Source of the DNA: Escherichia coli
GTDB taxonomy: Bacteria > Pseudomonadota > Gammaproteobacteria > Enterobacterales > Enterobacteriaceae
Length of the DNA stretch: 64,000 nt
Assembly: GCF_017348835.2 (NCBI RefSeq)
Contig: NZ_CP071375.1
Strand: one strand, 5' to 3'
This document shows positions 32,527 through 34,826 of the stretch, piece by piece. Position 1 is the stretch's first letter, and each line of letters starts with the position of its first letter. The translations under genes were made by a program, and so were the position numbers. The notes under the pieces were generated by a model, which saw only the letters and a program-made list of their open reading frames with translations, did no database searches and was not told where the DNA came from.

Positions 32527-34077
32527 TCACAAATGTTGCTCGGCCCAGCGTAAGAAATCTTCTTTCGGTAATGCCTTGCTGTAGAGCCAGCCCTGACCGT
32601 AGTGCACGCCATGCTGGCGTAGCCACTCTTCTTGTTTACTGGTTTCGATTCCCTCCGCTACCATTTTCAGTTTCAGTGTTTTTGCCATTTCGATGATATG
32701 CGGCGTGACATTTTTATATTCCAGCGCATCAACGAAAGATTTATCGATCTTCAGAATGTCGACATCCAGATCCTGTAAATAACTTAAACTTGAATACCCC
32801 GTACCAAAATCATCAAGATAAATTTCATGGCCCGCCTCCCGGTAGCGAGAAATTATCGGGGCGCTGGTTTTCGGATCGGCAAACTCGCGTTCAGTGAGTT
32901 CAAGCGCGATCTGTCTGGGATTAACCTGATAGTGATTGATCATTTCACGCAGCAATTGCGGGATTTTTTCCGAGGTGAGCACGGTGGATTCAAGATTGAT
33001 CGAAATATGCTGCTGTGGATGCTGACGCAGCCAGTCGCCCATATCTTCAAAGACGCTTCTTATAATCAGTAGCGTCAATGGCTCAGAAAGGCCCGTTTGC
33101 TGTGCCAGCGGAATAAAACTATCTGGTGACAACCAACTACCGTCTGTCTGCGGCCAGCGCGCCAGTGCCTCAGCACCGACAATTTTGCCATTGGCTAAGG
33201 AGACAATCGGCTGATAGTGCACGCAAATATCACGATTTTCGATAGCATCCTGCAGCCGATGATGCGGTGACTGGATACGGCGCAAAATACGCAGCACAAA
33301 CATCGCTGCCAGCAGGCCAATCACCAACCCGAGCGGTAACCAAATAAAGACTTGCCGATGCCAGCCTTTCTGCAACATTTTCGTTGAAGCCCAGGTGATG
33401 ATCGAAATATTCATCTCCGGGAAGGGCAGGATATCGTAAATGATTCCATTATTTTCGATATGCTCACCGGGTGTTTTTTGTAGCCTGGTAATAATTCCCT
33501 GAGCAATTTCATCGCTGCTGGTTATGACAACGTTATGGGCATTGCCAATAATGGCGGCATCAATTTGCCATGAGCTATAGGGAATGACATCAATAAAGGA
33601 AGCGGGGTCGATCATGACGACATAATGTGCCGTTCCCATGGCGACCATGTAACGGATAATGCCTAAATCGTTATGCGATGTTAACCAGACACGATAACCA
33701 TCTTTCGAAATTTTACCTGGCTCGGGGAAGGTATCGGGCGGACTTTCATGCTCCAGAGACGAACACTGGGGAACGTTGTTATCGATATAAACCACTTCCT
33801 GAATATAGCGATAACTGTAAGATACCCGACGCATTTCCATGAGATGGGCTTCGCTACAGGCAGCGCCTTGCCATCTTTCCAGCTCTTGCAGCGCATCTTT
33901 CCCTTGTGTCGCCACCTTATTGGCCCGAATAGCGACGCGGGAGGAATAGGTATTCAGCTCTTCAATAAACGATGTTTCTACCTGCTGATGGGCCAGCCAG
34001 ATGCTTAAGCCGACAGGCAGCAATACTGAAATAATCAGTACTCCCGAAATAAGGCCGACCAGATGTCGTGTTCTCAC
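32527..34077 (-). CDS. pdeB: c-di-GMP phosphodiesterase PdeB (YlaB), CSS-motif sensor plus EAL domain, 516 aa (GTG start; upstream ATG at 34083 would give 518 aa)
   Basis: ORF-track 32527..34083 minus; EAL-domain motifs (QIALELTE, DDFGTGYSSL); N-terminal TM then periplasmic domain. Confidence 0.88.
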   Translation of the reverse strand: MRTRHLVGLISGVLIISVLLPVGLSIWLAHQQVETSFIEELNTYSSRVAIRANKVATQGKDALQELERWQGAACSEAHLMEMRRVSYSYRYIQEVVYIDNNVPQCSSLEHESPPDTFPEPGKISKDGYRVWLTSHNDLGIIRYMVAMGTAHYVVMIDPASFIDVIPYSSWQIDAAIIGNAHNVVITSSDEIAQGIITRLQKTPGEHIENNGIIYDILPFPEMNISIITWASTKMLQKGWHRQVFIWLPLGLVIGLLAAMFVLRILRRIQSPHHRLQDAIENRDICVHYQPIVSLANGKIVGAEALARWPQTDGSWLSPDSFIPLAQQTGLSEPLTLLIIRSVFEDMGDWLRQHPQQHISINLESTVLTSEKIPQLLREMINHYQVNPRQIALELTEREFADPKTSAPIISRYREAGHEIYLDDFGTGYSSLSYLQDLDVDILKIDKSFVDALEYKNVTPHIIEMAKTLKLKMVAEGIETSKQEEWLRQHGVHYGQGWLYSKALPKEDFLRWAEQHL

Positions 34078-34240
34078 CAGCATATCCTTATTAACACAGT
34101 GTAGGGAAAGTATATCTGATTGTGGAAAAAGGCTGGCAGGAGATAAGGAGGTAGAGCTGGTATTTCATGAAGTGATGGGTGGAAACGATCATTGTCATTT
34201 GACCAGGCGCAGAGCTTTACGCCTGGTATGTAACCCTAAC

Positions 34241-34711
34241 TTAAGATGTTGATTCGGCGCGAGCGAGGGTAAAAATATCGTAAAAAGACAGTTCACCTTT
34301 ACGGACGATCATTTTTTGCAGTTGTTCCTTATGAACATCCGCGACACGCGGAGAGTTCAAGATGGCTTCAACCAGCGCGGCAGGTACAAAGCGCGTGTTG
34401 TACCATTCGCCGTTATAGCAAACGCGGAAATCCAGCACGTCGATATCTTCATAGCGGTAGCGTGGGTAGACATCGAAAAAGAAGAAACCATTAAGCAGGA
34501 TAAATAATACAACCAGTAGCCAGACAGAGCCTGAAAGCGTTTCGGACTGCAACATCACCGCCAGGGTGGCAAAAAAAGCAACGTACATACCGATAAACAG
34601 CCCCGGATGTTTACGGATAAAACTGATACTAAAGCGGGGTTTGTTGTCGCGTTTTTCGCGGGTATTCAGAGACTCAATCGTTTCGGTCAGCAGGCGTTGT
34701 ATTTCGGTCAT
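34241..34711 (-). CDS. ylaC: Inner membrane protein YlaC, 156 aa
   Basis: ORF-track 34241..34750 minus; start at [15 protein letters not shown]; two predicted TM helices. Confidence 0.88.
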
Positions 34712-34826
34712 CGTTTGCCTTCGTGGTATCTGCAACTTTCCAGGGAACACCCTATTTTAACGTGGGAATAGTAGAGGGAAAGTAACAGATTTACCACAAT
34801 TTTGCATAACAGTTGCGAAAAACCGA

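Follow-up and report, generated by a model that had tools for sequence, protein, structure and literature searches.

Which of two closely spaced codons serves as the start of pdeB is the question raised by this stretch of Escherichia coli DNA. The window, meaning the whole stretch of 64,000 nucleotides that was analyzed, is 100% identical to positions 3691492-3755491 of E. coli PE164 (NZ_CP114128.1) in reverse complement. Its minus strand reads TAAGGA-T-ATG-CTG-GTG-AGA at the beginning of the gene, within gtgttaaTAAGGAtATGCTGGTGAGAACACGACAT, and the ATG and the GTG are in frame (Table 1). The first-pass annotation had proposed two in-frame start candidates here and had taken the GTG to give the canonical length. 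Both statements are correct: positions 34075-34083 are exactly the ATG, CTG, and GTG codons, and the 516 amino acids counted from the GTG match K-12 b0457 and the RefSeq coding sequence of PE164. Although a mechanical open reading frame (32527..34083, minus strand) begins at the ATG, which is the first start codon of the frame, and comes to 518 amino acids, RefSeq gives a coding sequence of 1551 nt from the GTG in both PE164 and K-12. An ATG is intrinsically a stronger initiator than a GTG. An in-frame ATG no more than two codons upstream is expected in approximately 3% of genes, and thus the pattern at pdeB is not beyond chance. [quoted passage not shown]

Table 1. Features at the start of pdeB, in window coordinates.
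Feature	Position	Strand	Remarks
pdeB coding sequence from GTG	32527..34077	-	516 amino acids plus stop; the PE164 RefSeq coding sequence maps to window 34077
GTG, annotated start	34075..34077	-	516 amino acids
CTG	34078..34080	-	in the SD-start spacer; TTG in some Escherichia, GTG in strain SB0258h1
Upstream ATG	34081..34083	-	518 amino acids if used; inside the SD-start spacer, 1 nt past the SD
Shine-Dalgarno (SD) box TAAGGA	34085..34090	-	best duplex with the 16S 3' tail, -6.0 kcal/mol
TATACT, putative -10 element	34109..34114	-	within conserved GATATACTT; inferred

Domains, orthology, and synteny confirm the gene as pdeB (also named ylaB, or b0457), predicted to encode a c-di-GMP phosphodiesterase with a CSS domain and an EAL domain. 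It is flanked by ylaC and ybaA, as it is in PE164 and K-12. In 518-residue numbering, the Pfam CSS-motif domain (PF12792) covers residues 40-244 (E=1.3e-53) and the EAL domain (PF00563) covers residues 276-503 (E=9.9e-67). Both conserved cysteines of the CSS domain can be seen in the translation ('AACSEAH' and 'QCSSLEH'), as can the catalytic EAL motifs EALARW, DDFGTGYSS, and EGIET. The protein shares 99% identity with the RefSeq clusters named 'PdeB [E. coli]'. A search of NCBIfam found no PdeB-specific model above cut-off, and returned generic EAL equivalogs only, all below cut-off. The K-12 gene (protein NP_414990.2) is identical to the window gene throughout the start region (ATG CTG GTG preceded by TAAGGA), has the same 516-amino-acid annotation from the GTG, and sits in the same ylaC-pdeB-ybaA order, whereas the differences are strain-level substitutions only, such as I18 of the window protein (518-residue numbering), which is L in K-12. 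In K-12, PdeB is reported to be a c-di-GMP phosphodiesterase whose redox control acts through the periplasmic CSS domain, and DegP and DegQ process the protein (PMC5897775).

Ribosome-binding-site spacing is one means to separate the two candidates. The best pairing between the leader and the 3' tail of 16S rRNA is AUAAGGAU, at -6.0 kcal/mol, which leaves a gap of 7 nt to the GTG and of 1 nt to the ATG. In terms of aligned spacing, which counts the bases separating the start codon from the mRNA position that aligns with C1535, these gaps correspond to values of 5 and -1, respectively. The reference for these values was formed by the 43 other annotated genes of the window whose SD pairing is -4 kcal/mol or better, in which, with the caveat that their starts are annotations that themselves rely in part on ribosome-binding-site models, the aligned spacings are 1 (three genes), 3 (two), 4 (three), 5 (10), 6 (nine), 7 (four), 8 (four), 9 (six), and 15 (two). 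The GTG therefore sits at the mode of this distribution (10 of 43 genes), and the ATG lies below the lowest value seen (1), with none of the 43 genes at 0 or less. Thus, the spacing check that had been suggested for this locus, once carried out, favors the GTG.

A second SD-like pairing farther upstream that might serve the ATG was also sought, and none was found, the best alternative duplex being +1.9 kcal/mol. Summing the energies of the duplex, a spacing penalty, and a start-codon term places the ATG at approximately 4% of the GTG, a figure to be read as an order of magnitude only, from a crude calculation with Salis-2009-type parameters. An estimate of 0.21 relative to the GTG that was obtained for the intervening CTG was discarded, since it depends on an out-of-register duplex and since the start-codon terms understate how weak CTG is as an initiator. 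Folding of the pdeB start region showed no excess structure over shuffled controls (z = +0.75), which favors neither codon, and mRNA structure that might hide one of them was therefore set aside as a means to tell them apart.

The same region also contains a mini-ORF of seven codons (GTG TTA ATA AGG ATA TGC TGG TGA, 34074-34097, minus strand), whose TGA overlaps the pdeB GTG in the arrangement GTGA. It has no SD upstream, and the INRI-seq data discussed below include no out-of-frame site for ylaB. This mini-ORF is probably a chance pattern.

The proposed orthologue alignment has likewise come out in favor of the GTG. DNA was obtained for 19 orthologues and matched to taxon names, and in all 19 the codon aligned with the E. 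coli GTG is GTG or ATG. The codon at -2, where the upstream ATG lies, is ATG in eight of 18 sequences, all of them from Escherichia-type organisms other than E. fergusonii, namely E. coli, E. albertii, E. whittamii, cryptic Escherichia clades, and one relative with 78% identity. It is ATA in Escherichia sp. MOD1-EC7003 and ATC in three sequences, from E. fergusonii, Salmonella enterica, and the Citrobacter freundii complex. The remainder, from other Citrobacter, Enterobacter, Leclercia, Pseudenterobacter, Phytobacter, and Trabulsiella, have AGC, GAC (twice), AGG (twice), or TTG. The TAAGGA box is conserved 7 nt before the GTG across Escherichia, Salmonella, and C. freundii. E. fergusonii, Salmonella, and C. 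freundii have it at exactly this distance, with spacers that vary among TATCTTC, CATCACT, and TATCACT. A constant distance between TAAGGA and GTG, maintained while the 7 nt between them vary, is how a spacer behaves, rather than a series of codons. These pdeB genes resemble that of the window in their SD box, the length of the spacer, the GTG start, and a product of 516-517 amino acids, but their spacers hold ATC ACT or ATC TTC instead of ATG CTG, which makes their starts unambiguous. The alignment indicates that the upstream ATG is a lineage-specific, single-base change within the SD-start spacer, for which ATC to ATG would be the parsimonious direction.

Protein sequences from a wider sample give a similar picture. 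Among 120 clusters of PdeB orthologues, 112 begin with M/V-x-T/N-R-H/R-L and none begins with MLVRTRH. The eight exceptions consist of assembly indels, IS2 fusions, two long JGI gene calls, and one chimera. Three PdeB variants of 549-556 amino acids (P0001, P0005, and P0008), all from short-read (Logan) assemblies, carry N-terminal extensions (MTMIVSTHHFMKYQLYLLISCQPFS...) that are probably assembly errors, produced by leader indels that fuse the frames. For Citrobacter amalonaticus and C. rodentium, RefSeq holds 511-residue beside 516-residue versions of the orthologue, and start calls in other genera are therefore inconsistent. RcnA proteins also fall in the 90% cluster of Enterobacter PdeB (P0063), apparently as an artefact of clustering, and rcnR and rcnA are neighbors in L016.

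Variation within E. coli is of less help. A 32-mer around the pdeB start is identical in 5,276 of 5,426 complete genomes (97%) and differs by one base in another 147, and with such identity the ATG cannot be separated from the GTG by differences within the species. The GGAC variant that is typical of other Escherichia species had 0 matches in E. coli. Strain SB0258h1, the one genome inspected among the 147 with a single mismatch, has GTG in place of the CTG (L024 313-321), and so reads ATG GTG GTG. Even with these three consecutive in-frame start-like codons, RefSeq (PGAP) retains the canonical GTG start.

A few genomes carry more drastic changes at this site. In E. coli VL40 (NZ_CM177011.1, L025 2524-3854), an IS2 element is inserted exactly at the pdeB start (equivalent to window 34073-34077) with a 5-bp target duplication, GTGAG. 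The insertion severs pdeB from its SD, the ATG, and the promoter and regenerates GTG AGA ACA, and RefSeq annotates pdeB in this strain as intact. Two proteins of 543 amino acids, P0002 and P0003 (MTSLKTSIKTITYLSDIGCLEIQGASLVRTRH...), come from alleles of this type, with the reading frame entered from the end of IS2, and thus the event is present in several records. In E. coli FCI56 (NZ_CM172715.1, L026 2665-3700), an IS1 element lies approximately 13 nt upstream of the SD, with a breakpoint near window 34097; pdeB and ybaA are missing, and IS1 and an integrase gene are in their place, next to ffs. Coverage of the 481-nt pdeB start region falls below 80% in approximately 15 of 5,424 genomes. 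The 5' end of pdeB may be a recurrent target of insertion sequences.

Published data on initiation at this gene come from INRI-seq, a cell-free initiation profiling method in which a truncated T7 transcript is used (PMC9825163). In these in vitro experiments, the annotated start of ylaB (position 478617) gave peaks of 65.4, 74.8, 90.1, 76.7, and 93.6 CPM, and thus was detected in five of five replicates (Table S2; PMC9825163). An alternative in-frame ATG at -6 is listed with 31.3 CPM in two of five replicates (Table S3; PMC9825163). The method assigns the 3' ends of footprints to a start codon when they lie 15 +/- 3 nt from it (PMC9825163). For codons that are 6 nt apart, this rule produces peak windows that abut (+12..+18 for the GTG vs +6..+12 for the ATG, relative to the GTG), such that a trimmed footprint from the GTG could be read as a peak at the ATG. 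According to the authors, alternative sites generally do not have SD motifs, but are A-rich (PMC9825163). Among the alternative initiation sites catalogued by INRI-seq and Ribo-RET (Hoer et al. 2022; Meydan et al. 2019), the -6 ATG of ylaB is thus already an entry, in INRI-seq Table S3, together with genes such as rof and yahD in which an in-frame ATG likewise lies at -6. Unlike the validated cases of speA and uidR, the alternative ylaB peak was seen in vitro only, and it is weaker than the peak at the annotated site. In vivo Ribo-RET data, as re-analyzed in the INRI-seq tables, have no peak at either the GTG or the ATG of pdeB (PMC9825163). Overall, the INRI-seq results identify the GTG as the principal site of initiation in vitro, with use of the ATG that is possible but at most minor. 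Both the GTG annotation and the weak alternative site at the ATG are already in public resources, and in this sense are already known.

The literature was searched for studies that map the N-terminus of PdeB in vivo, and none was found. The names ylaB, pdeB, and b0457 are absent from the supplements of the TetRP (PMC4909307) and TRAINSPOTTER N-terminomics (PMC13245402) studies, and a full-text literature search for b0457 returned unrelated papers only. The constructs employed to study PdeB biology carried a C-terminal Flag tag and hence are uninformative on the start (PMC5897775), and the start codons treated in another report are those of ycgG, not those of ylaB (PMC10459773).

Annotation, SD spacing, orthologues, and the published INRI-seq data all argue for the GTG as both the principal start of pdeB and the ancestral one, and for the 516-amino-acid annotation as correct, a reading to which we assign a probability of approximately 0.85. 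Against it count the greater intrinsic strength of ATG as an initiator, the call of this codon as an alternative site by INRI-seq, and its near-fixation in E. coli, along with its presence in E. albertii, E. whittamii, and cryptic clades. If its near-invariance in E. coli meant that translation in this species begins principally at the ATG, then the protein would have 518 residues and the current annotation would be wrong. The ATG is, furthermore, the first start codon of the open frame and is preferred to GTG as an initiator. Nevertheless, we regard this as highly improbable, given an SD spacing of 1 nt (aligned, -1) that is outside the range of the 43 reference genes, a GTG peak that is stronger and more reproducible in INRI-seq, and relatives that retain the SD and the GTG without the ATG, as in MOD1-EC7003 (ATA) and in E. 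fergusonii, Salmonella, and Citrobacter (ATC). The annotation of the IS2 allele as an intact pdeB, although the ATG is gone and only the GTG is regenerated, also speaks against it. That neither codon is used and that translation begins farther downstream is barely credible. No evidence in favor of this idea was found, the 511-residue RefSeq versions of some Citrobacter orthologues showing that pipelines sometimes pick a later start. Against it, residues 2-6 (x-T/N-R-H/R-L) are conserved in 112 protein clusters, the next in-frame start-like codon falls inside TM1, and INRI-seq has a peak at the GTG.

Both codons might instead be used to a meaningful extent in Escherichia, yielding proteoforms of 516 and 518 amino acids, with the ATG recognized independently of an SD in an A/U-rich, unstructured leader. 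Such dual initiation would draw on an ATG that is the stronger codon, on a leader that does appear unstructured (z = +0.75), and on the listing of the -6 ATG as an INRI-seq alternative site, with 31 CPM compared to approximately 80 CPM at the GTG, among sites that are generally SD-less but A-rich (PMC9825163). We nonetheless consider it quite unlikely. The ATG peak is present in only two of five replicates, the shorter footprint of GTG-bound ribosomes could be mis-assigned where the windows abut, and the data were obtained in vitro with a truncated T7 transcript. Moreover, the ATG is not conserved beyond part of Escherichia, and the difference of two residues falls in a cytoplasmic tail without obvious function. 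It is also unlikely that the ATG is a genuine SD-independent second start in E. coli and its closest relatives (not E. fergusonii, Salmonella, or Citrobacter), used for example during pdeB expression in stationary phase, in which case the ratio of the 516- and 518-residue forms would depend on conditions. Under the reading that we prefer, in which the GTG is the principal start, the upstream ATG would be at most a minor, SD-independent second start.

For site selection at this principal GTG, we infer that the anti-SD of the 30S subunit would pair with TAAGGA (34090-34085) and thereby position the P site approximately 7 nt downstream, on the GTG. The main product would then be a protein of 516 amino acids with the N-terminus fMet-Arg-Thr-Arg-His. 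Only 1 nt from the SD helix, the ATG would be too close for the SD to serve it, and might best be viewed as a spacer that happens to spell ATG. The change from ATC to ATG probably arose in the Escherichia lineage after the split from E. fergusonii. Once present, the ATG may catch a small share of SD-independent initiations and so give rise to a form with two additional residues (Met-Leu-Val-Arg...). These residues would extend the short, five-residue cytoplasmic tail that precedes TM1, with no functional effect predicted.

The leader upstream of the SD has features of its own. The segment GATATACTT (34107-34116, minus strand) lies approximately 30 nt upstream of the GTG and shows little or no variation among the leaders of Escherichia, Salmonella, and Citrobacter. 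A strict scan for sigma-70 promoters and terminators across 33950-34300 found nothing, and no -35/-10 pair. The segment resembles a -10 element that stands without a -35 element, and such a putative promoter would fit the sigma-S control that has been reported for pdeB (PMC5897775). Farther upstream, a hairpin (ACCAGGCG-N10-CGCCTGGT, 34202-34227, minus strand) lies 14 nt past the ylaC stop codon, and is conserved in Escherichia with changes to the stem in some clades. It could be the 3' end or a terminator of ylaC, and the terminator scan does not call it because there is no T-run. The start of ylaC itself (34241-34750, minus strand) looks less secure than that of pdeB: the mechanical open reading frame reaches a GTG (169 amino acids) and the annotation begins at an ATG (34711, 156 amino acids), the SD is weak (-3.3 kcal/mol, spacing 3), and the K-12 YlaC protein record is at version 4. 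[quoted passage not shown]

The current 516-amino-acid annotation of pdeB is confirmed as the best supported, and for the biology of E. coli this matters very little. What separates the two possible PdeB products is two residues in a cytoplasmic tail of five, and a functional consequence is not expected. For researchers who create N-terminal tags or translational fusions to PdeB, there is reason to retain the native TAAGGA-N7-GTG arrangement. More generally, pdeB offers a small and clean illustration of how the choice between closely spaced start candidates can be settled by SD spacing together with alignment across genera.
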